DNA of 62,852 nt from Bacilli bacterium (GTDB lineage: Bacteria; Bacillota_I; Bacilli_A; RF39; UBA660). The notes beneath the pieces were generated by a model. The model had not been told where the DNA came from, did not search any database, and saw nothing but the letters and a program-made list of their open reading frames with translations. A program made the translations under genes and the position numbers. The DNA is taken from positions 1 through 62,852 of the forward strand of contig JAEDKN010000004.1 of assembly GCA_016295795.1 (NCBI GenBank), read 5' to 3'. Shown here one piece after another: positions 50,359 through 61,233 of the stretch (position 1 is the first letter of the stretch; every line of letters begins with the position of its first letter).

Positions 50359-51117
50359 CTATTTATCAAAACCTGGTAATATTAGTTGTTTCACAACTGG
50401 TTCTTGAAAATTGGGATTTTCAAATGACTTACTACTTGGCAAAATTATCTTTTTTTCTACTTCTTCTTCTTTTTTCACTTTTTTATTTATATGATCTTGC
50501 AAATCAAGCGTTGCTCTAAAAAGTTCTCTATACAAATGGTATTTAGAAAAGTCATCTTTTATAGCATTTCCATAATATAAAAGTTCTCCATCATTATCTC
50601 CTTCTATACCTTTTTTTACATGTTCAAGAATTCTTTTATACTCCCTAATCTGCCATAAAAGACTACGTGTTTTAAAATATTGATCTTTCATATACAATTT
50701 ATATAATTCTTCATTATCAAACAATTCATCAAAAATTCTTTCAACTTCAGCTTCTTTAACCCTGTCATCTTTAACATACTTTTCTGAATTTTTAATTATC
50801 TCTTCTCTACCAAACGTAGGAGAAATTTTATTTACGTAACCTTTTGTATTATATCCAACAAACATATCATAAATTGGATCATAAAATTTTAAATTCCTTA
50901 AAAATTCAATTGAATCTTCATAACTATTAGTCATGTCGTCAATGTCTCTTAAAGACATTTTCTTATTATATTTGATAATTCCTTGAAAACCAGCTACCGT
51001 ATATTTATTAAAAACATAATTGCCACTTTCACCTTTTTTAAAATATATAGCGTCATAAATTCTTCCACATTCGTTATAGTTTCCTTTTCTAGAACAAACT
51101 AATACAAACTTTTTCAT
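50359..51117 (-). CDS. Hypothetical 252-aa protein
   Basis: GGGGG RBS, dedicated consensus promoter and terminator. No domain recognised. C-terminus '...QLILPGFDK'. Confidence 0.6.
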   Translation of the reverse strand: MKKFVLVCSRKGNYNECGRIYDAIYFKKGESGNYVFNKYTVAGFQGIIKYNKKMSLRDIDDMTNSYEDSIEFLRNLKFYDPIYDMFVGYNTKGYVNKISPTFGREEIIKNSEKYVKDDRVKEAEVERIFDELFDNEELYKLYMKDQYFKTRSLLWQIREYKRILEHVKKGIEGDNDGELLYYGNAIKDDFSKYHLYRELFRATLDLQDHINKKVKKEEEVEKKIILPSSKSFENPNFQEPVVKQLILPGFDK

Positions 51118-51208
51118 ATAACCCCCAAAAGCATAAAAAATCTCATTGTAACTTGAGACTAGTGAAGTGCTATATCAAACTGCATACCCATAGTTAAACA
51201 ACGAGGAC

Positions 51209-51237
51209 ATTATACCACAAATTCGCAAAAAAGTCAA
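51209..51237 (-). promoter_or_regulatory. Sigma-A promoter for the 252-aa hypothetical gene
   Basis: Minus strand reads TTGACT-17 nt-TATAAT with TG at the extended -10 position. Leaves a leader of about 85 nt. Confidence 0.65.
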
Positions 51238-51244
51238 AAATCGC

Positions 51245-52129
51245 CTAATAAGCGATTCCTTTCATACTAATATAATTTGAAACATTATCTAAAATAACCA
51301 TCTTGACTTGATTATCATAATTTCCTGAAATCATATACCAAACGTCATCAATATTAACAGCTATACCTATATGTGAGTTGTCATTAATAAGTACTAAATC
51401 TCCGTTTTTCAAAGATGATCTATTAGTATATAATCTATTATTATTCTTAGCCCATTCCATATACGAAGAAACATCATCTAAATCATCAATACCATAATTT
51501 CCTAAGTTTATAGATGCTACTGTAGCAGACCAATTTATAAATGTTGAATCCCAAACATTACCACTATTTCCAAATTTTTGATAATTATTAATACCAGGGT
51601 TTAATGTACAATCATCTGTATTTGAATCAGTTGCTTTTTCAACATATCCAACTTGGGTACATGCTGCATCAACCATATCAATTCCAACTATACATTTTAG
51701 GTTTTTATTACAAATGCTTCCAACTTGTAAATCTTTATTTAATTCCTTTTCTTCTTTTACTACTGCATATAAAATAATGTCTTTACTGACTTCTACTTTT
51801 TGCCCTACCTCATATTTAACATCATCTAAATTTTCTGAGAGTGACCATCCGGCAACTTCATATCCAACAGGTGCTTCAATAGAAGGTGTTATTACGAAAC
51901 AAGAACTTCCAGATGCATAACATTTGCTTGAAGAACTTCCAATACTTTTGGCGTTTCCTATTTCATATTTAACAGTAAGCGTGGTATTCAATGCATTCTT
52001 AGCTTCAGAAGTAATTTTCTCTTCACCATTATCTTTGTAAACAAAAATGGTTATAAATAAAGCTGTTCCAATACAAACAATAGCTAGAACTAATAAAATT
52101 ATTATAATTATTTTGTTTTTAGATTTCAT
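51245..52129 (-). CDS. Membrane-anchored protein with Listeria-Bacteroides (Flg_new) repeat and CHAP/amidase-like C-terminal domain lacking the catalytic Cys
   Basis: TM 'IIIIILLVLAIVCIGTALFITIF'. 'PVGYEVAGWSLSEN...ILYAVV' repeat. C-terminus 'GYVEK...NVWDSTFINWS...YMEWAK...GDLVLINDNSHIGIAV...ISGNYDNQV'. Confidence 0.65.
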   Translation of the reverse strand: MKSKNKIIIIILLVLAIVCIGTALFITIFVYKDNGEEKITSEAKNALNTTLTVKYEIGNAKSIGSSSSKCYASGSSCFVITPSIEAPVGYEVAGWSLSENLDDVKYEVGQKVEVSKDIILYAVVKEEKELNKDLQVGSICNKNLKCIVGIDMVDAACTQVGYVEKATDSNTDDCTLNPGINNYQKFGNSGNVWDSTFINWSATVASINLGNYGIDDLDDVSSYMEWAKNNNRLYTNRSSLKNGDLVLINDNSHIGIAVNIDDVWYMISGNYDNQVKMVILDNVSNYISMKGIAY

Positions 52130-52203
52130 AACTTGTTCTCCCATATTCTATAAACTAATATTAGTTTATTTATAATTTTTTGTCAATAAATATGGAAATA
52201 TCT

Positions 52204-54381
52204 TTAAAAATTATTTGGATTAATGTCAATATCTATCTTTATGTTTCTATTGTTCTTATAGTGATCAATTAATAATTTTAAAATCTCATCTATATGTTCC
52301 TCTTTTTTATATTTTATAATGATTCCAAATCTATATAGTCCGTTTAATTTAAATACACTACACGTAGTTGGCCCTAAAATCTGACTATTTTTTAACAAAT
52401 TCTTTAACTTATAAGCAATCTTATTTGCTTCATTTCTTATGATGTCATAATCCTTACCAATTACTTTTATCTGAACTAAGTAATAATAAGGAGGATATGA
52501 TAATTCTCTTCTTATAGACATCTCTTTTTTAAAAAATCCTAAATAATCATGCTCTTTTGCGAATTTTATTGCATAATGTTCGGGATTGAACGTTTGAATC
52601 ACAACTCTTCCTTCTTTTTCTCCTCTGCCACTTCTACCAGCTGTTTGCATAAGAAGTTGAAATGTATATTCACTACTGCGATAATTAGGTATCATCAAAG
52701 AAGTATCTGCATTTATAACACCAACTAAAGTAACTCTCGAAAAATCAAGTCCTTTTGCAATCATTTGGGTACCCAATAGAATATCGTATTTATAATCTTT
52801 AAAATCATTTATAATCGATTCATGCGAACCTTTCTTTACAGTTGTATCCAAATCCATTCTTACTATTCTAGCATTAAATAGTTTTTTTAATTCTTCTTCT
52901 ACTTTTTCGGTACCTGTTCCCAAACTTTTCATAGATTTCTCTTTACACTTTGGACAAACCTCTTGCATTTTATCACCATAACCACAATAGTGACACCTTA
53001 AAGTATTTGATGATTTATGATATGTTAATGTGATATCACAATGAGGACATTTAATAGTATGCCCACAGTTAGAACATGTAACAAAAGATGCATATCCTCT
53101 TCTATTAAGAAGAAGTATAACTTGTTCTTTCTTTTCTAATCTCAAATTTATCTCATTAATTAGCTTATCAGAGAAAATCGCACCACGACGACGTTCTTTA
53201 TTCATGTCTATTATTTCAACTTTTGGTAAAACCTTATCATTAAATCTAGTTTTTAGTTCTATTCTTTGATAAAGTCCTTTTATAGATTTTGCATATGATT
53301 CTAAAGAAGGAGTTGCACTTCCCAAAATGACTCTACAATTATGAAATTTACTTCTTTCTATAGCAATGTCTATAGCACTATATTTAGGATTATTATCTTG
53401 CTTATATGAGGTTGTGTGTTCTTCATCTATTATTATTACCCCTATATTCTTAAATGGCGCAAAAACTGCACTTCTAGCACCAACTACTATATGTACTTTT
53501 CCACTTGAAATCTTTCGATATTCATCATATTTTTCTCCTTCGCTTAACCTACTATGTAAAACAGCGACTTCATCACCAAACCTAGATTTAAAACTATATA
53601 CCATTTGTGGAGTAAGTGAAATTTCAGGAACTAAAAATATACTGTCCTTTCCTTGCTTTAACATCTCCTCAACTATCTCAATATAAACAATAGTTTTACC
53701 AGAACCAGTTACTCCATGTAATAAAAAAGTTTTAGGTAAAAACTTGGTATTTAAAATTTCCTCTTTCGCTTCTCTTTGAGAAGGAGTAAGAGTAAATGGT
53801 TCTTGTTTTATTACATCTATTTCTTTAAGTCTATACTCTTCTACTTCTTTTTCTTTAAGAATACCTTTTTTCAAAAGAGTCTTAACACTAGAAGCAGAAA
53901 TTTTGTTTAATTCATCTTTCCTTATTTGTATTTTGTTTTTTAAAAGATCAATTATCTTACTTTGAGTTGAATTTAAAATCTGATCATCTAATTTTATTTC
54001 ATCTGATATTTCTATTATTTTTATAAATTTCTTATTTATTGTAGTTCTATTTTGTGCTTTCAGTGCTTTGGGCAACATAGTTTGATACGAAGAAATAAGC
54101 GTAGAAAAATATTTCTCACTCATGAACTTACCTAGTTCTAATAATTCTTCATTTAAAATAACTTCATTATCAATAACATCTATTATCTGTTTTAATTCAT
54201 AATCCGAATCTAAAGAATCATTTATTATTTCTAAAACGAATCCTTCTAATTCTCTGGTGGCAAAAGGAACCTTTACCCTTATGCCAACTTTTATTTTATT
54301 TTCTAATTCAAAAGGCACAAAATAGTCAAAAGTTTTGTCTACATTAATATTTGAAATTTCTACTAAAACTCTTGCTACCAT
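52204..54381 (-). CDS. priA: Primosomal protein N' (PriA helicase)
   Basis: Walker A 'GVTGSGKT', 'IIIDEEH', Cys-rich zinc region 'CSNCGHTIKCPHCDITLTYH...CHYCGY...CPKC', 725 aa. Confidence 0.95.
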   Translation of the reverse strand: MVARVLVEISNINVDKTFDYFVPFELENKIKVGIRVKVPFATRELEGFVLEIINDSLDSDYELKQIIDVIDNEVILNEELLELGKFMSEKYFSTLISSYQTMLPKALKAQNRTTINKKFIKIIEISDEIKLDDQILNSTQSKIIDLLKNKIQIRKDELNKISASSVKTLLKKGILKEKEVEEYRLKEIDVIKQEPFTLTPSQREAKEEILNTKFLPKTFLLHGVTGSGKTIVYIEIVEEMLKQGKDSIFLVPEISLTPQMVYSFKSRFGDEVAVLHSRLSEGEKYDEYRKISSGKVHIVVGARSAVFAPFKNIGVIIIDEEHTTSYKQDNNPKYSAIDIAIERSKFHNCRVILGSATPSLESYAKSIKGLYQRIELKTRFNDKVLPKVEIIDMNKERRRGAIFSDKLINEINLRLEKKEQVILLLNRRGYASFVTCSNCGHTIKCPHCDITLTYHKSSNTLRCHYCGYGDKMQEVCPKCKEKSMKSLGTGTEKVEEELKKLFNARIVRMDLDTTVKKGSHESIINDFKDYKYDILLGTQMIAKGLDFSRVTLVGVINADTSLMIPNYRSSEYTFQLLMQTAGRSGRGEKEGRVVIQTFNPEHYAIKFAKEHDYLGFFKKEMSIRRELSYPPYYYLVQIKVIGKDYDIIRNEANKIAYKLKNLLKNSQILGPTTCSVFKLNGLYRFGIIIKYKKEEHIDEILKLLIDHYKNNRNIKIDIDINPNNF

Positions 54382-54392
54382 AGTGCCTCCAT

Positions 54393-55298
54393 TTATTTAT
54401 CTTTTTCTTTTTTTAAAAGTTTAATATTTTCTATACTAGATTTTATATTATCTTTCATAGAATCATCTAAAATTTTAAATGTAAAATATTTATCTATCAA
54501 ATTAATAGTCAATTCTTCATCCCTTAATATTTCCATATTAATAGTATCACTATTCTCATTTTCCATCAAATAACAAAATCTTTTATCCTGTTTGTTAACA
54601 TTACCCTTAGAATTCAAATAATTAATATATAGATAAGAATCTTTAGAGATTTCGTCCATCAACGAATTAAAACCATCAATATCATATATTGATAAATCAT
54701 ATATAAAATCAAACAATTCAGAATAAGAATAAGCCTTTCTACTTAATTCATCTACCTCTTCTGAATTCTGGTAAAAAGAATTGTACATATTTTCTAAAAC
54801 ATCTCCTGTTATATCATAACAACAATCTAATTTATCTAAAATATATATAGGAGATATCTTAGATAAATAAGAATCATAACAAGAAAAGTCAAAAAGCAAA
54901 GAACGCTTTTCAAGAAATTTTGACGAATCAAAACAACAATTCTTATCTAAAAGAGAAATCAAAAAAACAGGATTATCTGTTGCGAAAGCTATAACATCAT
55001 CAATATTAGTTATATCAGAAAGCTCTTCCTCATCATAAAAGAAACAAGAAGAATCATCTTCGCAATAATCAATATATTCCCTTTCATCATCATTTTCAAT
55101 ACTATCCAAGAGATTTTCTAAATAAAAAACAGGATATAAAGACATTAAAATAGTTTTATAAAGTGAAAAATTATTTTCTTCCAAATCATCCATATACTCC
55201 AAATATTCTATATATCCCTTATTACTTCTTTCGCTTGCAAATTCCTCAATTAAACCTCTTCTTATTTCTTGGTTGATATTATAAACTTCAAAAACCAC
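54393..55298 (-). CDS. Acidic 301-aa hypothetical protein, paralog A
   Basis: GTG start. Homologous to 58400-59305 (shared 'EV.N.N..IR', 'YPVFY', 'LEKR', 'YLS.IS..Y.LDK...C.DIT', 'MDEI..DSY.Y'). 11 nt upstream of priA. Confidence 0.65.
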   Translation of the reverse strand: MVFEVYNINQEIRRGLIEEFASERSNKGYIEYLEYMDDLEENNFSLYKTILMSLYPVFYLENLLDSIENDDEREYIDYCEDDSSCFFYDEEELSDITNIDDVIAFATDNPVFLISLLDKNCCFDSSKFLEKRSLLFDFSCYDSYLSKISPIYILDKLDCCYDITGDVLENMYNSFYQNSEEVDELSRKAYSYSELFDFIYDLSIYDIDGFNSLMDEISKDSYLYINYLNSKGNVNKQDKRFCYLMENENSDTINMEILRDEELTINLIDKYFTFKILDDSMKDNIKSSIENIKLLKKEKDK

Positions 55299-55354
55299 TT
55301 ACTACCACCACTTTAATCTAATAATAACAAATAAACAGCCATTGCACAAGAAAA

Positions 55355-55383
55355 TTGACTAATATTAAAAAAAATGTTATAAT
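55355..55383 (+). promoter_or_regulatory. Consensus sigma-A promoter for the 55410-58408 operon
   Basis: TTGACT-17 nt-TATAAT with TGt extended -10. Confidence 0.7.
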
Positions 55384-55409
55384 ATGTGCCATTAAAAGGG
55401 GCTGTTGAA

Positions 55410-56417
55410 ATGTTAAACGAAATAATATCTTTATTTTCAGATAAAGAAGGATATATAACAGATATAGAAAATGTTATATTATATTTAAAAAATAAGCAAT
55501 TAGAAAACAAAACAATTATTTTATACTTAATAGAAATATATAATTATAATCGTAAAGTATATAAAACTTTAAATGAAAAAAACGATCTAGCTACTAAACT
55601 TAAAAATGCTCAATCTTCTTCAGAAGTATCAAAATCTAAAATAAATTCAAAAGAAAAATCGAATAATACAGCAAAAACAAATATTATAGAAATAAATATA
55701 GATCATTATATTTCTTTATTATCAAATATGAAACCAAACCAAGATTTAACAGCTTTGCTTCCTAAACATACGGATAACAATTTTGATTTTGTTATAAACA
55801 AATTATTACTTCACTACATTAAAAATGAAGTTATACTAACTCAAATGCTAGAAGAAACAGATAAAACTGACAAAGAATTAATTTCATATATAAATAACGA
55901 AATTATAGAAAATAAAAAATTGATTAATGCTATTATAGATTATCGTGATTCTGGAATTAAAGATAATGTAGAAAGTGATAATTGTAATAAAATTACACTA
56001 ATATTTACAGATGACATAATTGATGATTTTGATAAAAATTCAATACCAAGAGAACTATATGGAGATTTTTCTCTTTTGTTAGAGTCTTTAAAAAATGGCA
56101 ATCCTAAAAATGCAAAATCATTCAAACCAGGAGATGGTGATTACACAATATATGAAGTAAAACATAATAAAGCCAGAATATTATTTGATATAGTAAACAA
56201 CAATACTTATTGCTTATATTTTGCATTTATAAAAGATGGTAATGACTTATATTATCATAATACATTAGTAAAAAGGTCTACAGAATATTATGAAAACAAA
56301 AATCTATTATTAAAAGATTTCTACTCTGATAAAGATAGAGAAAATTTTATAAGTGAACAGAAAACTTTAGAAAATAATATATCAAAAAAGTTAGTTAATT
56401 CAGTTAAGGGGTTGTAA
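55410..56417 (+). CDS. Hypothetical protein with helical N-terminal region and RelE/Gp49(HigB)-like C-terminal segment
   Basis: ATG at 55410 after AAAGGGG. C-terminus 'KSFKPGDGDYTIYEVKHNKARILFDIVNNNTYCLYFAFIKDG' fits the Gp49/RelE-fold pattern (yE.r....~RIl%....~~~.l..aF.K). Confidence 0.65.
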   Translation: MLNEIISLFSDKEGYITDIENVILYLKNKQLENKTIILYLIEIYNYNRKVYKTLNEKNDLATKLKNAQSSSEVSKSKINSKEKSNNTAKTNIIEINIDHYISLLSNMKPNQDLTALLPKHTDNNFDFVINKLLLHYIKNEVILTQMLEETDKTDKELISYINNEIIENKKLINAIIDYRDSGIKDNVESDNCNKITLIFTDDIIDDFDKNSIPRELYGDFSLLLESLKNGNPKNAKSFKPGDGDYTIYEVKHNKARILFDIVNNNTYCLYFAFIKDGNDLYYHNTLVKRSTEYYENKNLLLKDFYSDKDRENFISEQKTLENNISKKLVNSVKGL

Positions 56418-56419
56418 TA

Positions 56420-58408
56420 ATGGAAACACTAATAAAATCCATAGAAGAAATAAAAGAACAATTAATAGAAGAAAAAGAAAATTATAATAAAAAAGAGCTT
56501 GAATTCTTTGAAAGAAACATAAATATATTTAAAAGAAATAGTATTTTTAATATAGAATATATTCTACCTACTGATATTATACTAGCATCTATAAGATCAC
56601 TTAAGAGTAATGATTCATTTGAAGAAGACTTAAAAAAAGTTACATATATAGGTAATATAGACAACCAATCTGCTGATGATATTACAGTTCTATTTGAAAT
56701 GTTAAATCGTTTTTTGGATAAAGATGCTCTTGATGAATTAAAAAAAGAACGTCCAAATAATATCAGACTTCGTGATTTGGATTTATTAGATGCACATAAT
56801 CTTTTTATAAAAGCAATAGAAATATTCTTTAGTAGAGATAGAAAAAGTATAGATACATTAGTAGATTTATATGAAAAATATGACAAATTAGATGTATTTG
56901 CAAATTTAATACTATTTAATGATTACAAAGAAATAATAGATGAATATGATGAGTTTCAAATATTAAAAAGATCAAAAAGCTCCAAAAATTCATTAATGCT
57001 TGCAAAACATAGTATAGAAGATTTAAGTTATGCAGATCAATTATTTGAAATGTTTGATAATTTTTCTATTTATTATAATGACTTAAAAGCAAAAACTAAA
57101 CTTTACCAATCAGAACTAAATAAAAAAATAAACTCTTATGAAAAAGTGTTAAATTTTATTAAATATTATAATTTTTCATCTAAACTACCTATAGAAGCAT
57201 TATCAAATATAGATGGAAAAATCGCTATAGAAGTTTTAATAGAAACATTAGAAAAAGATAAAAGCGAATATTTAACTCTTAAAAAAGAATATGAAGCTAA
57301 CTCTTTAAATGAAATAGATGATTTAGATAGATTACTTCTTCAATACGGAATTAACTATTTTACAAATATCCAAAAACAAGAACTTTTATCTAAAAACAGT
57401 ATTGAAAATATAGAAGGTATTTTAGATTCTTTGATGAATTCAAAGTTAAATTTTATATCAAGTGATGATAATCTTATGTTAAATACTTTGTTATTTTCTT
57501 CTGAATCAATAATACAAAAGATAAATGCCCTAATAGAATCTAATCTAATACCATTATCATTTATAGAAAAGAATCTTGGAATATTATTTGATGAAGAAAA
57601 TTCAGAAACTTTGATAGATACAGAAATACAACCGAAATATAGATTGTTTTCTAGAAATTTAGAAACAATTCAAGGATATAATATAAATGTAGCTAATATT
57701 AAAAAATTCAATATTACACTATTAGTAGAAGATAATAATACTCTTGAACAGAACCTAGCCTTAGCATCAATTTATATGCTTAATTTATCAGATTCACGAT
57801 TAGACAATTTTGCTTTATTAGAAGATGAGTCGATTTTTTACACACTAGATCAACTAATAGAATTAGGCAATAAAAATATTTCTTTTGAATATTTAAAGGC
57901 TTTAAGAAAAAATGATAAAAATTTTGCAAAAAGATGTATTCTTGCAAATTACCTATCAATACCAATAATTGATAATAACGGTTATATTAATCCAACAGTA
58001 GCAAACAAAAATAAATTTTACGTTTCTGATAGTGATATAGATAAATATATATTAAATAATACACAAAATCACATATCACCAGAACATTATTCATATTTAG
58101 AGGAAAACAGTAATAATAAAATTGATGATTCGGTATTAAAAGATTCAGCTATATTATTTTTAGATTCAAATTATAAAATTGACGAATTAGCATATAACAT
58201 ATCAGGAGTAAGAATTTCTAGAAATAGAGTTTTAAGAAACTTAACTTCATTAAAAACTGCATTCAATTCTAGTGATTCAGAAATAAACTTACTTGATTCA
58301 GCACTATTATATAACTCAATACTATCAGAAGAAAAAATTCAAACATTACTAGAAGAAACTTCTAAATTTGAAAGTTTATCAAAAGAAAAGAAACAAAGAT
58401 TAATTTAA
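56420..58408 (+). CDS. Hypothetical 662-aa all-helical (repeat-like) protein
   Basis: ATG 2 nt after the upstream stop, AAGGGG RBS. No enzymatic motif. Periodic leucine-rich helical segments of about 30 aa. Confidence 0.65.
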   Translation: METLIKSIEEIKEQLIEEKENYNKKELEFFERNINIFKRNSIFNIEYILPTDIILASIRSLKSNDSFEEDLKKVTYIGNIDNQSADDITVLFEMLNRFLDKDALDELKKERPNNIRLRDLDLLDAHNLFIKAIEIFFSRDRKSIDTLVDLYEKYDKLDVFANLILFNDYKEIIDEYDEFQILKRSKSSKNSLMLAKHSIEDLSYADQLFEMFDNFSIYYNDLKAKTKLYQSELNKKINSYEKVLNFIKYYNFSSKLPIEALSNIDGKIAIEVLIETLEKDKSEYLTLKKEYEANSLNEIDDLDRLLLQYGINYFTNIQKQELLSKNSIENIEGILDSLMNSKLNFISSDDNLMLNTLLFSSESIIQKINALIESNLIPLSFIEKNLGILFDEENSETLIDTEIQPKYRLFSRNLETIQGYNINVANIKKFNITLLVEDNNTLEQNLALASIYMLNLSDSRLDNFALLEDESIFYTLDQLIELGNKNISFEYLKALRKNDKNFAKRCILANYLSIPIIDNNGYINPTVANKNKFYVSDSDIDKYILNNTQNHISPEHYSYLEENSNNKIDDSVLKDSAILFLDSNYKIDELAYNISGVRISRNRVLRNLTSLKTAFNSSDSEINLLDSALLYNSILSEEKIQTLLEETSKFESLSKEKKQRLI

Positions 58409-59305
58409 ATCTTGTTTCTTTTTTCGTAAAATCTTACTTCCTAAGTGATTTTCATTTGAATAATTATCAACCTTATTCTTATATTCATTAGTCGAATTAG
58501 AATAGTCAAAAAATTCTATAGTTAATTCAGTTAAGAAGTACATATCATCTTGTAGTGTATGTTCTAAATTTTCCTCAAAATTAGAGTTTTCAATTGAAGT
58601 TAATAATTTACTTTGTTCAATCGATAAATCTTCAATAGATGATTTATATCTTAAATATTTATAGGAATCAAATAAAATTTCATCCATTAAATTTGAATAA
58701 TCCATATAATCAAGATATGATAAATCAGATAAAAATTCAACCATTGCACTAATAGTTTCCATCTCAATATCTTCTGGATTTTCATAATACAAAGCTATAT
58801 TAGCGTAATACACCCAATATAAATTGAAAAGTTCTTCTTTTGTTATATCAAAGCAAAATTCCATTTTATCTAATAAATACAATTTAGATATATTGGATAA
58901 ATACTTATCATCACAACCTCTCTCTTTTAGCATTGCGCGTTTTTCCAAAAGAGGTGATTTCATAAAAAGAAGATTATTTCTAAAAATATCAGCTAAAATA
59001 TTCGGTTCTTCCATAATTAAAAAAGACACATCTTCAATCGATGAAGCATTTTCTAGTTCACTAGACACATCAAAAGTATCAAATTCTTCATCTTCGTTAA
59101 GATCACTAGCATAATATTTATCTACAACATAAAAAACTGGATACATGACTTTTAATATTTTAATATATTTATCATAATCTAATTTTTCTAATTCTTGCAT
59201 ATAATAAATAAATGCCATCTCATAATTAGAGCTATAATTACTCAAAAAATATTTAACAATGTCATATCTTATAGAATCATTCACATTAAATACTTCTACT
59301 TTCAT
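58400..59305 (-). CDS. Acidic 301-aa hypothetical protein, paralog B
   Basis: ATG after AAAGAGG. Homolog of 54393-55298 with identical length. Its 3' end overlaps the convergent 662-aa gene by 9 nt. Confidence 0.65.
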   Translation of the reverse strand: MKVEVFNVNDSIRYDIVKYFLSNYSSNYEMAFIYYMQELEKLDYDKYIKILKVMYPVFYVVDKYYASDLNEDEEFDTFDVSSELENASSIEDVSFLIMEEPNILADIFRNNLLFMKSPLLEKRAMLKERGCDDKYLSNISKLYLLDKMEFCFDITKEELFNLYWVYYANIALYYENPEDIEMETISAMVEFLSDLSYLDYMDYSNLMDEILFDSYKYLRYKSSIEDLSIEQSKLLTSIENSNFEENLEHTLQDDMYFLTELTIEFFDYSNSTNEYKNKVDNYSNENHLGSKILRKKKQDLN

Positions 59306-59328
59306 ACTCGTGCCTCTTTCTGAGTAAT

Positions 59329-59357
59329 ATTATACTTTTGTAGAAAAGCCATGTCAA
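59329..59357 (-). promoter_or_regulatory. Consensus sigma-A promoter for paralog B
   Basis: Minus strand reads TTGACA-17 nt-TATAAT. Confidence 0.7.
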
Positions 59358-59374
59358 TTTTTTAATTAGATTTC

Positions 59375-59400
59375 AAAAAAAATAGAACTTTGTGTTCTAT
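59375..59400 (-). terminator. tsf terminator
   Basis: atagaac-5 nt-gttctat hairpin just after the tsf stop, followed on the minus strand by T8. Confidence 0.65.
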
Positions 59401-59402
59401 TT

Positions 59403-60278
59403 CTATCCATTTATTTGACTCATAACTTCGCTTGCAAAGTCATCTACTCTTTTTTCGATTCCTTCTCCAACTTCAAAACGAACTACTTCTGTAATTTTTG
59501 AATTACTATTTTTAACATAAGTTTCTACATCAACATCTGGATTTTTAATAAATGGTTGTTCTAAAAGACAAACTTCTTTATAGAATTTATTTATTCTACC
59601 ATTTACCATTTTTTCAGCTATTTCAGCAGGTTTTCCTTCTTCGATTGCTTGTTTCTTAATTACCTCTTTTTCATGATCAATAACATCTGAAGGCACTTCT
59701 TCTCTAGAAACATATGCAGGTTTCATAGCTGCAACATGCATAGCAACATCCCTTGCAACTTCTTCATCTGAGCCATCTAAAACAGTAATAACATTTATCT
59801 TACCAAGATTTTGATGATTATACACACCAAATACTTGTGCATCAGTTTTTTCTAGTATTTTAAATCTTCTAAAACTAATTTTTTCACCTATCTTAGCAAT
59901 CAAACCAATTAATGTAGAACTAACAGTTCCATCTCTCATTGGAAGATTCATAGCAGAATCTAAATCGTTAACATTACCATTTAATATTACACTAGCTAGT
60001 TCTGAAACAAAACTAGTAAATTCAGCATTTTTAGCAACAAAATCAGTTTCAGAGTTAACTTCTACTATAACAGCTCTATTACCCTCAACTAGGATTTCGC
60101 TTAATCCTTCAGCAGCTATCCTAGATTCTTTTTTTGCAGCTTTAGAAATGCCTTTTTCGCGTAGCCAATCTATGGCTTTGTTCATATCGCCTTCTGATTC
60201 TTGCAACGCTTTCTTGCAATCCATCATTCCAGCACCAGTTTTTTCTCTTAATTCTTTTACATCACTTGCGCTAAACAT
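59403..60278 (-). CDS. tsf: Elongation factor Ts
   Basis: 'VKELREKTGAGMMDCKKAL' UBA-like N-terminus. ATG at 60278 after AAGGTGA; the track ORF is GTG-extended. Confidence 0.97.
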   Translation of the reverse strand: MFSASDVKELREKTGAGMMDCKKALQESEGDMNKAIDWLREKGISKAAKKESRIAAEGLSEILVEGNRAVIVEVNSETDFVAKNAEFTSFVSELASVILNGNVNDLDSAMNLPMRDGTVSSTLIGLIAKIGEKISFRRFKILEKTDAQVFGVYNHQNLGKINVITVLDGSDEEVARDVAMHVAAMKPAYVSREEVPSDVIDHEKEVIKKQAIEEGKPAEIAEKMVNGRINKFYKEVCLLEQPFIKNPDVDVETYVKNSNSKITEVVRFEVGEGIEKRVDDFASEVMSQING

Positions 60279-60288
60279 ATTCTTCACC

Positions 60289-61233
60289 TTATTTTAAAAC
60301 TTCAAGAAGTTCATCTTTCTTTAATTTTGAATAACCTTTAATTCCTTTTATCTTAGCCATTTCTTTTAATTCTGCTAAAGTCATATCGTTGATGTCTTTC
60401 ATAACTTCTTCAACTACTTCTACTTTTGCTGGTTCCTCAACAGGTTCTTTTACTTCTTCTTTTACTGTCTCTTTAACTTCTTTAGGCTCTTGTTTTTTAG
60501 CTTTTTTTTCTGCCTTATTCTTATCATCTTCAGTTAAATAATCAATAACTTCTTTACCATTAACTTCAGCAATAGCATTAGTTAATACACCAAGCATTAA
60601 TTTAACACTTCTAACAGCATCATCATTACCAGGTATAATATAATCAACCATATCAGGATCACAATTAGTATCAACAACACCAAATACAGGAATATTTAAT
60701 ATTCTGGCTTCTTTAATAGCATTTTCTTCTTTACGAGGATCAACAATAACAATTGCAGCAGGTAACTTCTTCATATCCCTAATACCACGTAAAAATTTGT
60801 TTAACTTATCATATTCTTTTTTAATTTTAATTACTTCTTTTTTAGGTAATAAATCAAAAGTTCCATCACTTTCCATTTTTTCAATTTGTTCTAGTCTTTT
60901 AACTCTTGATCTAATAGTTTTAAAGTTTGTTAATGTTCCACCTAGCCATCTTTCATTAACAAAGTACATGTCAGTTCTTAAAGCACACTCTTCAGCTGCT
61001 TCTTGTGCTTGTTTCTTAGTACCTACAAATAAAACCTTTCCTTCAGCTTCTGCAATAGCTTTCATTGCAGCATAAGCTTCTTCTATTTTCTTTGCTGTTT
61101 TTTGTAAATCTATTATATATATATCATCACGAGAAGTATATATATACTCTCTCATTTTTGGATTCCATCTTCTTTTTTGGTGTCCAAAGTGAACACCTGC
61201 TTCTAATAAATAATTCATTGAAACTACTGTCAT
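60289..61233 (-). CDS. rpsB: 30S ribosomal protein S2 with C-terminal extension of about 80 aa
   Basis: '[19 protein letters not shown]', 'VVDTNCDPD'. Then a K/E-rich linker and the terminal segment '[31 protein letters not shown]'. Confidence 0.97.

Follow-up and report, generated by a model that had tools for sequence, protein, structure and literature searches.

A predicted RelE/HigB-type protein and its large partner form a conserved gene pair in uncultured, very low-GC bacteria

Introduction

Nucleases of the RelE/HigB type have been described as small toxins or, in defence systems controlled by an ATPase, as effectors. In the higBA operon the gene for the HigB toxin precedes the gene for the HigA antitoxin, and Firmicutes also have toxin-antitoxin pairs that are fixed in the chromosome, such as MazEF/NdoAI. 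Toxins of the Gp49 family are ribosome-dependent mRNases, and multidomain relatives of these toxins, such as NsnC/PtuZ, are defence effectors that a regulatory partner holds via their N-terminal domain (PMC11980606, PMC12065111). For Menshen (NsnABC, or ptuXYZ), the prediction is that the effector docks onto its regulator through this N-terminal domain (PMC12065111). Many multidomain proteins of the RelE/ParE (BECR) superfamily were omitted from one survey because no antitoxin was identifiable (PMC11980606). Here we describe a two-gene locus with a predicted domain of this superfamily in a 62,852-nucleotide stretch of a Bacilli bacterium genome (contig JAEDKN010000004.1, assembly GCA_016295795.1; the whole stretch is called the window below). 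Its genes, B (55410-56417, plus strand; 335 aa, two domains) and C (56420-58408, plus strand; 662 aa, acidic), lie between priA and tsf, and each is flanked by one of two acidic paralogues, A and D.

The pair resembles several described systems and differs from each of them. As in HigB/Gp49 type II toxins (PF05973; Streptococcus pneumoniae HigB, 6AF4), residues ~190-300 of B (nt 55977-56309) are modelled as a RelE/ParE-superfamily domain of the HigB/Gp49 type, and as in higBA the toxin-like gene precedes its partner. However, B carries a helical N-terminal half of ~185 aa and a linker that HigB does not have, its partner is a protein of 590-690 aa without a recognisable helix-turn-helix rather than a ~100-aa HigA, and the genes stand among mostly housekeeping genes and were not found on mobile elements. 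The pair is not, in other words, a single-domain toxin of ~90-120 aa with a small DNA-binding antitoxin. With NsnC of Menshen, B shares the succession of a non-catalytic N-terminal domain, a helical linker and a C-terminal BECR nuclease domain, and the docking predicted for Menshen is the model that we propose for B and C. Unlike Menshen, the locus has two genes rather than three, lacks NsnA and NsnB, and has a partner that is not an ATPase; unlike NsnC, B has a helical N-terminal domain instead of an inactive PIN domain. With MazEF/NdoAI the pair shares the apparent vertical inheritance of a toxin-type module at a conserved chromosomal position and not on mobile elements, although the folds and sizes are unrelated. 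The architecture is not described in the two papers on multidomain BECR proteins (PMC11980606, PMC12065111): a RelE/HigB-type domain is here part of a protein of 320-350 aa, which invariably comes with an undescribed partner of ~650 aa.

Results and Discussion

Conservation and inheritance of the B-C pair

A preliminary description of the region, made from the sequence alone, had presented the four genes as a symmetric cassette in which A (54393-55298, minus strand; 301 aa) and D (58400-59305, minus strand; 301 aa) mirror each other around B and C. The four open reading frames (ORFs) are present as described, and so are the spacings reported for them: 2 nt between B and C, 11 nt between A and priA, and a convergent overlap of 9 nt between the 3' ends of C and D. 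C is apparently translationally coupled to B. The mirror symmetry does not hold, as A and D share the minus strand.

We compared 11 distinct lineages with B and C, namely the window species, a CAG:710-type lineage, a third lineage (L014) and eight further ones (L008, L009/10, L011, L012/13, L015, L025, L026 and L027). In every one of the 11, B is directly followed by a C homologue that overlaps or abuts it. The partner in the eight further lineages is 587-693 aa long and is identified as a C homologue by BLASTP (E 9e-19 to 4e-33); partners outside the C profile match the C-family hidden Markov model (HMM) at E 5e-34 to 6e-75. These eight lineages have no A-family gene in the fetched flanks. 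The A family is confined to three related lineages (the window species, the CAG:710-type L001/L003 and L014), and D is present in the window's own species only, including the conspecific contig L007. Because B-C occurs in 11 lineages, A in three and D in one species, the conserved unit is the B-C pair and not the four genes. The preliminary description had itself counted independent distribution in relatives as evidence against its cassette, and this is in part what the comparison returned.

In contigs of the same species the order is again priA-A-B-C-D-tsf. Next in relatedness comes the lineage of Clostridium sp. CAG:710 (L003), to which a 686-kb contig (L001) also belongs. Here SMC, a pair of unknown genes and a Flg_new protein are followed by priA, A', B' and C', and then by SpoIVB, xseBA and nusB. 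Synteny with the window thus extends over A, B and C, whereas D is absent and tsf lies elsewhere. L014 reads priA-A''-B-C-SpoIVB. The flanks of the eight further lineages differ and are mostly housekeeping genes (cls, gyrB/gyrA, leuS/HU, frr/OGG, aspS, pssA/psd), and a Pfam search of the neighbours of the distant loci gave no shared third gene. All B-C loci have a GC content of 20-28%. No mobile-element genes were called in their flanks, tblastn of A, B and C against plasmid and phage collections returned no match, and neither did scans of viral contigs for members of families A and B. The loci show none of the association with integrases, transposases, phages or plasmids that marks a mobile defence island, and the module looks more like a fixed chromosomal unit, which appears to be inherited vertically in these poorly studied, uncultured bacteria.

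Between the window and L001, identity is 77% for SMC, 73% for PriA, 51% for the two unknown neighbours, 40% for B and C, and 33% for A. Within the CAG:710-type species the corresponding values are 94.4% for A', 99.4% for B', 96.3% for C' and 97.9% for PriA, with no excess of variability over the neighbours, and 47 C variants from CAG:710-type assemblies, with a mutual identity of 96.6-99.8%, are all full length. A word-indexed homology search returned near-identical relatives only, for both A/D and B.

Fold and family of protein B

An exhaustive HMMER search with B retrieved 202 cluster representatives (50% identity clusters) at E<=1e-3, so that the family comprises at least this many clusters, and nearly all of the representatives are 310-350 aa long and match over their full length. 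The structure of B was modelled with AlphaFold2 (AF2) on a 100-sequence alignment, with a predicted local distance difference test score (pLDDT) of 88.8; a model on a two-sequence alignment had a pLDDT of 45 and was unusable. In the model, residues 1-185 are helical and are followed by a short low-confidence loop. The C-terminal part consists of a strand-helix-helix unit (strand 196-199, helices 201-208 and 214-228), a three-stranded sheet (strands 247-252, 255-263 and 266-274) and a long C-terminal helix, so that it shows the N-terminal helices on a three- to four-stranded antiparallel sheet by which the RelE/ParE fold is recognised.

Foldseek against the PDB placed HigB of S. pneumoniae (6af4) first, followed by YafQ (9lew) and RelE proteins (3g5o, 3bpq and 2khe), with RelE2 and the archaeal and Thermus RelE among the best matches, and by HP0894, YoeB and ParE. 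Probabilities were near 1.0 and target TM-scores 0.55-0.71, at E-values of 6.6e-3 or weaker, which are modest because only one third of the query aligns. Against viral structures, Foldseek found small RelE-like proteins only and no full-length match. Sequence profiles point the same way for the family. Pfam Gp49 (PF05973) matches 15 of 100 B-family members at E<=0.01, and one of them (P0075) reaches 25.7 bits over residues 205-283, with a gathering score of 23.9. NsnC, the Menshen effector and the best PADLOC profile match in the family, matches 21 of 100 members, at E 2.7e-7 for the best of them. The match in P0061 extends over residues 107-301, that is, the linker and the nuclease domain, and over model positions 96-291 of 294. 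The assignment of a C-terminal RelE/HigB/Gp49-type fold to B thus draws on Foldseek with the predicted model and on the Gp49 and NsnC matches within the family, and it bears out the RelE/Gp49-like C-terminus that had been noticed in the preliminary description.

Across the family R256 is conserved in 100% of members, K275 in 97%, E249 in 91% and Y282 in 89%, and position 236 (K in the window) is K or R in 100%. By comparison without a computed alignment, these positions appear to coincide with active-site residues of E. coli RelE. Most members have a basic nuclease domain, and the median isoelectric point (pI) of the domain is 8.95.

A second, shorter B-family paralogue of 270 aa (E 4.7e-30) was found in one of the further lineages, in the minus-strand segment 2515-5349 of L026. 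An ORF of 83 aa comes after it, and it is preceded by genes for a methyltransferase of the Dam type and for a protein of 287 aa that has a HELGH motif. This locus has a more classical layout of a toxin with a small partner and is possibly linked to defence.

Protein C

C has no match in Pfam, PADLOC, NCBIfam, PHROG or the PDB. Searches of PDB sequences yielded nothing of note either with single proteins or with profiles. A motif check found no Walker A motif in C, and a hydropathy check found no membrane-like segment in any of the four proteins. For the catalogued anti-phage systems of PADLOC-DB v2, A, B, C and D have no match at E<=1 and the C family has none; NsnC alone among its models matches some relatives of B. 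The gain in annotation is a predicted fold for family B and the delineation of two new families, C and A/D, without a Pfam, NCBIfam or PADLOC match. No family with a characterised role in housekeeping or sporulation is matched by any of the four proteins; the preliminary description had likewise recognised no housekeeping motif in them.

Residues ~304-376 and ~415-484 of C give a marginal internal match (hhalign E 3.8e-4, probability 36%). A tandem duplication of a helical unit of roughly at least 70 aa is possible in the C family.

A model for B and C

We propose that the functional unit would be the B-C operon rather than the four genes, and that it may be a chromosomally fixed effector-regulator pair of new architecture, similar to toxin-antitoxin or abortive-infection systems, a reading to which we give an even chance. 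In this model the helical N-terminal half of B is probably an adaptor, joined through a helical linker to the HigB/Gp49-type domain. C would be made from the same transcript by translational coupling, would bind B and keep the predicted nuclease domain inactive, and would release it on a trigger such as phage infection or stress. B would then be the effector and C the co-translated regulator or sensor, and the pair is presumed to have become a fixed chromosomal feature in a set of metagenome lineages with very low GC content. The assignment of roles is by analogy with NsnC/PtuZ, which is held by its regulator via the N-terminal domain. If correct, the model would extend the RelE superfamily by a new regulatory architecture and offer a handle on stress or phage responses in organisms without genetics.

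Several observations weigh against this model. B of the window has itself no Gp49 or NsnC match at E<=1 and no significant sequence match in Pfam, NCBIfam, PADLOC, PHROG or the PDB. Two positions that are basic in the family hold other residues in it (I261 and D276), and the pI of its nuclease domain, 5.28, is acidic; a non-basic nuclease domain is found in 18 of 100 family members. No DNA-binding (helix-turn-helix) domain is detectable in C, which is about six times the size of a typical antitoxin. The pair stands among mostly housekeeping genes, is syntenic between genera, varies no more within a species than its neighbours, and is absent from plasmid and phage collections, as the B family is from viral contigs. 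Location, stability and non-mobility are as compatible with domestication for housekeeping as with defence. Of the conflict or defence module that had been suggested for the region, the toxin-fold gene B stands, while the mostly housekeeping neighbours and the lack of called mobile-element genes favour a fixed chromosomal module over a mobile defence island.

A far-reaching version of the effector-regulator model is more doubtful. In it, B-C would be an RNase-based system of two components, new as a class and acting in immunity or the stress response: a HigB/Gp49-type nuclease linked by a novel helical adaptor to a helical, non-ATPase sensor of very large size. The pair would be a fixed part of the core genome in an entire lineage of uncultured low-GC bacteria, with A and D recruited in one clade as a third, dosage-amplified component.

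Alternative explanations

The main rival to the effector-regulator pair is a domesticated housekeeping factor, in which B-C would use the RelE-like fold for a routine job, such as surveillance of ribosomes or mRNA, dormancy, or sporulation-linked control of translation, and would act neither as toxin nor as immunity. We consider this a minority possibility, though a substantial one. The neighbours are mostly housekeeping genes (priA, frr, gyrB, leuS, aspS, pssA/psd), the pair keeps the same position in three genera, all 47 near-identical CAG:710-type C variants are full length, and hypervariability within species is lacking. The apparently strong vegetative promoter of the pair, the spore genes in related contigs and the 18 of 100 B-family members with a non-basic nuclease domain also agree with it. 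However, the genes share 33-41% identity between genera where PriA and SMC share 73-77%, which would be unusual for core machinery, and the residues that resemble an active site remain conserved. We know of no characterised RelE/Gp49-domain protein with a non-toxin role, which also counts against domestication. If domestication is nevertheless correct, the locus would be one of few in which a toxin fold has been put to routine use.

Two of the remaining alternatives concern the acidic paralogues. Over 278 aa, A and D are 32% identical (BLASTP E 7e-33), with the motif LEKR...DIT in place; the preliminary description had named the lack of a statistically significant alignment between them as a ground for rejecting its proposal. 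Both proteins are strongly acidic, as had been claimed, with a pI of 4.12 for A and 4.30 for D. They had further been characterised as cysteine-containing, and cysteines are indeed present (eight in A and two in D), but the trait is weak, as C160 alone is invariant across the A family. The orthologues of A in L001/L003 share 33-34% identity with it (E 3e-41), and another orthologue is found in L014. The A-family HMM has no match in any other B-C locus examined, and a metagenome scan for the family found CAG:710-type loci only, with two European Nucleotide Archive (ENA) records, those whose names give a source, being human-gut metagenome assemblies; A-bearing relatives thus come from human-gut metagenomes. 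In sequence searches A has no Pfam, NCBIfam or PADLOC match and only weak PDB matches, and its best PHROG match, which is also the best for any of the four proteins, is a family of unknown function (E 0.0079); D has no Pfam, NCBIfam, PADLOC or PDB match. An hhalign comparison of the A family with the B and C families found no relation. A is a clade-specific acidic protein, oriented divergently from the B promoter, and D a species-specific, separately promoted paralogue of it, and both are linked to B-C by position only.

Position links A to priA as well. The two genes adjoin in all three A-bearing lineages, with gaps of 11-16 nt, and A is the apparent first gene of an A-priA transcription unit. 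A might therefore be a lineage-specific partner of PriA in replication restart, for example an acidic DNA mimic or a primosome accessory, that stands beside B-C by an accident of synteny, with D as a drifting duplicate. We regard this explanation as doubtful. That A heads the apparent unit in three lineages, with no terminator found, and occurs solely where priA is its neighbour favours it; A has no homology to known primosome proteins, however, and diverges much faster than PriA (33% against 73%), and D has its own promoter and adjoins no replication gene. In the CAG:710-type loci and L014, SpoIVB takes the position that D has in the window.

It is unlikely that all four genes make up one toxin/immunity or conflict cassette, with A and D as immunity or neutralising proteins for a B toxin, because the genes are so independently distributed. 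A and D do flank B-C directly, with the order kept in conspecific contigs, A adjoins the pair in three lineages, D landed next to the pair and not elsewhere, and both paralogues are strongly acidic, as many antitoxins are. Yet eight other lineages have B-C and no A-family gene in the fetched flanks, D is species-specific, A looks co-transcribed with priA at 11-16 nt and has no profile similarity to B or C, and the paralogues share one strand. The earlier suggestion of a toxin fold thus stands for B, and a toxin/immunity role for the paralogues received no support from anything tested.

A degenerate or variant Menshen system (NsnABC or ptuXYZ) is very improbable and largely refuted: the NsnC model does match 21 of 100 B-family members and spans positions 96-291 of 294 in P0061, but no B-C locus has an adjacent ParB-DUF262 (NsnA) or ABC-ATPase/DUF3696 (NsnB) gene, C lacks a Walker A motif as well as any PADLOC or Pfam match, and the N-terminal half of B is all-helical and not PIN-like alpha/beta (PIN definition in PMC12065111).

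Promoters and terminators

The promoter of the B-C operon (55355-55383, plus strand; TTGACT, 17 nt, TGnTATAAT) and that of D (59329-59357, minus strand; TTGACA, 17 nt, TATAAT, a 12/12 match), both reported earlier, are the two best of 64 sigma-70 matches in a scan of 52000-60500. The total number of matches in this interval is no higher than in a shuffled control. An equivalent extended -10 (sigma-A) promoter lies upstream of the B orthologues in L001, L014 and L015. Around the B promoter there is also a 16-nt inverted repeat with 81% complementarity that resembles an operator; it was dropped as a candidate because it shows no conservation in relatives.

The stretch TAATAATAxCAAAATA (plus strand) is conserved just upstream of the ribosome-binding site of A in three lineages (window 55319-55335, L001 8940-8960, L014 ~1800-1815). 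Read on the minus strand, it resembles an extended -10 of the form TGnTATTAT, and it may be the promoter of A itself, back to back with the B promoter.

The preliminary description had found no terminator between C and D, but an AT-rich 17-bp hairpin spans their overlap (58384-58424, both strands). Its folding energies on the two strands are -14.1 and -13.9 kcal/mol (z -4.3 and -3.7), none of 200 shuffles folds as well, and there are U-runs on both strands; it is a plausible bidirectional terminator of both convergent transcripts. The two arms of this one palindrome encode the lysine-rich C-terminal tails of C and D.

A further AT-rich hairpin with a U-run directly after tsf (59371-59400, minus strand, with the hairpin itself at 59382-59400) looks like the tsf terminator, and the D promoter lies downstream of it. 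The terminator scanner overlooked this hairpin because its stem has too few G-C pairs; in genomes this AT-rich, terminator scans need relaxed rules.

Neighbouring genes

The window has no Rfam matches and no tRNAs. Between smc and priA lie two poorly characterised genes (50359-52144, minus strand), which encode a 252-aa protein without a match and a protein of 299 aa that matches Flg_new and NlpC/P60 weakly; the gene pair is syntenic in CAG:710-type genomes at ~51% identity. Ribosomal protein S2 (60289-61233, minus strand) carries a C-terminal Rho_N domain (PF07498, residues 281-311; 29.8 bits, gathering score 24.9) and L20 (61321-61881, minus strand) a C-terminal HeH/SAP-like match (PF12949, residues 153-185; 28.8 bits, gathering score 28.9), so that two ribosomal proteins have similar nucleic-acid-binding tails.

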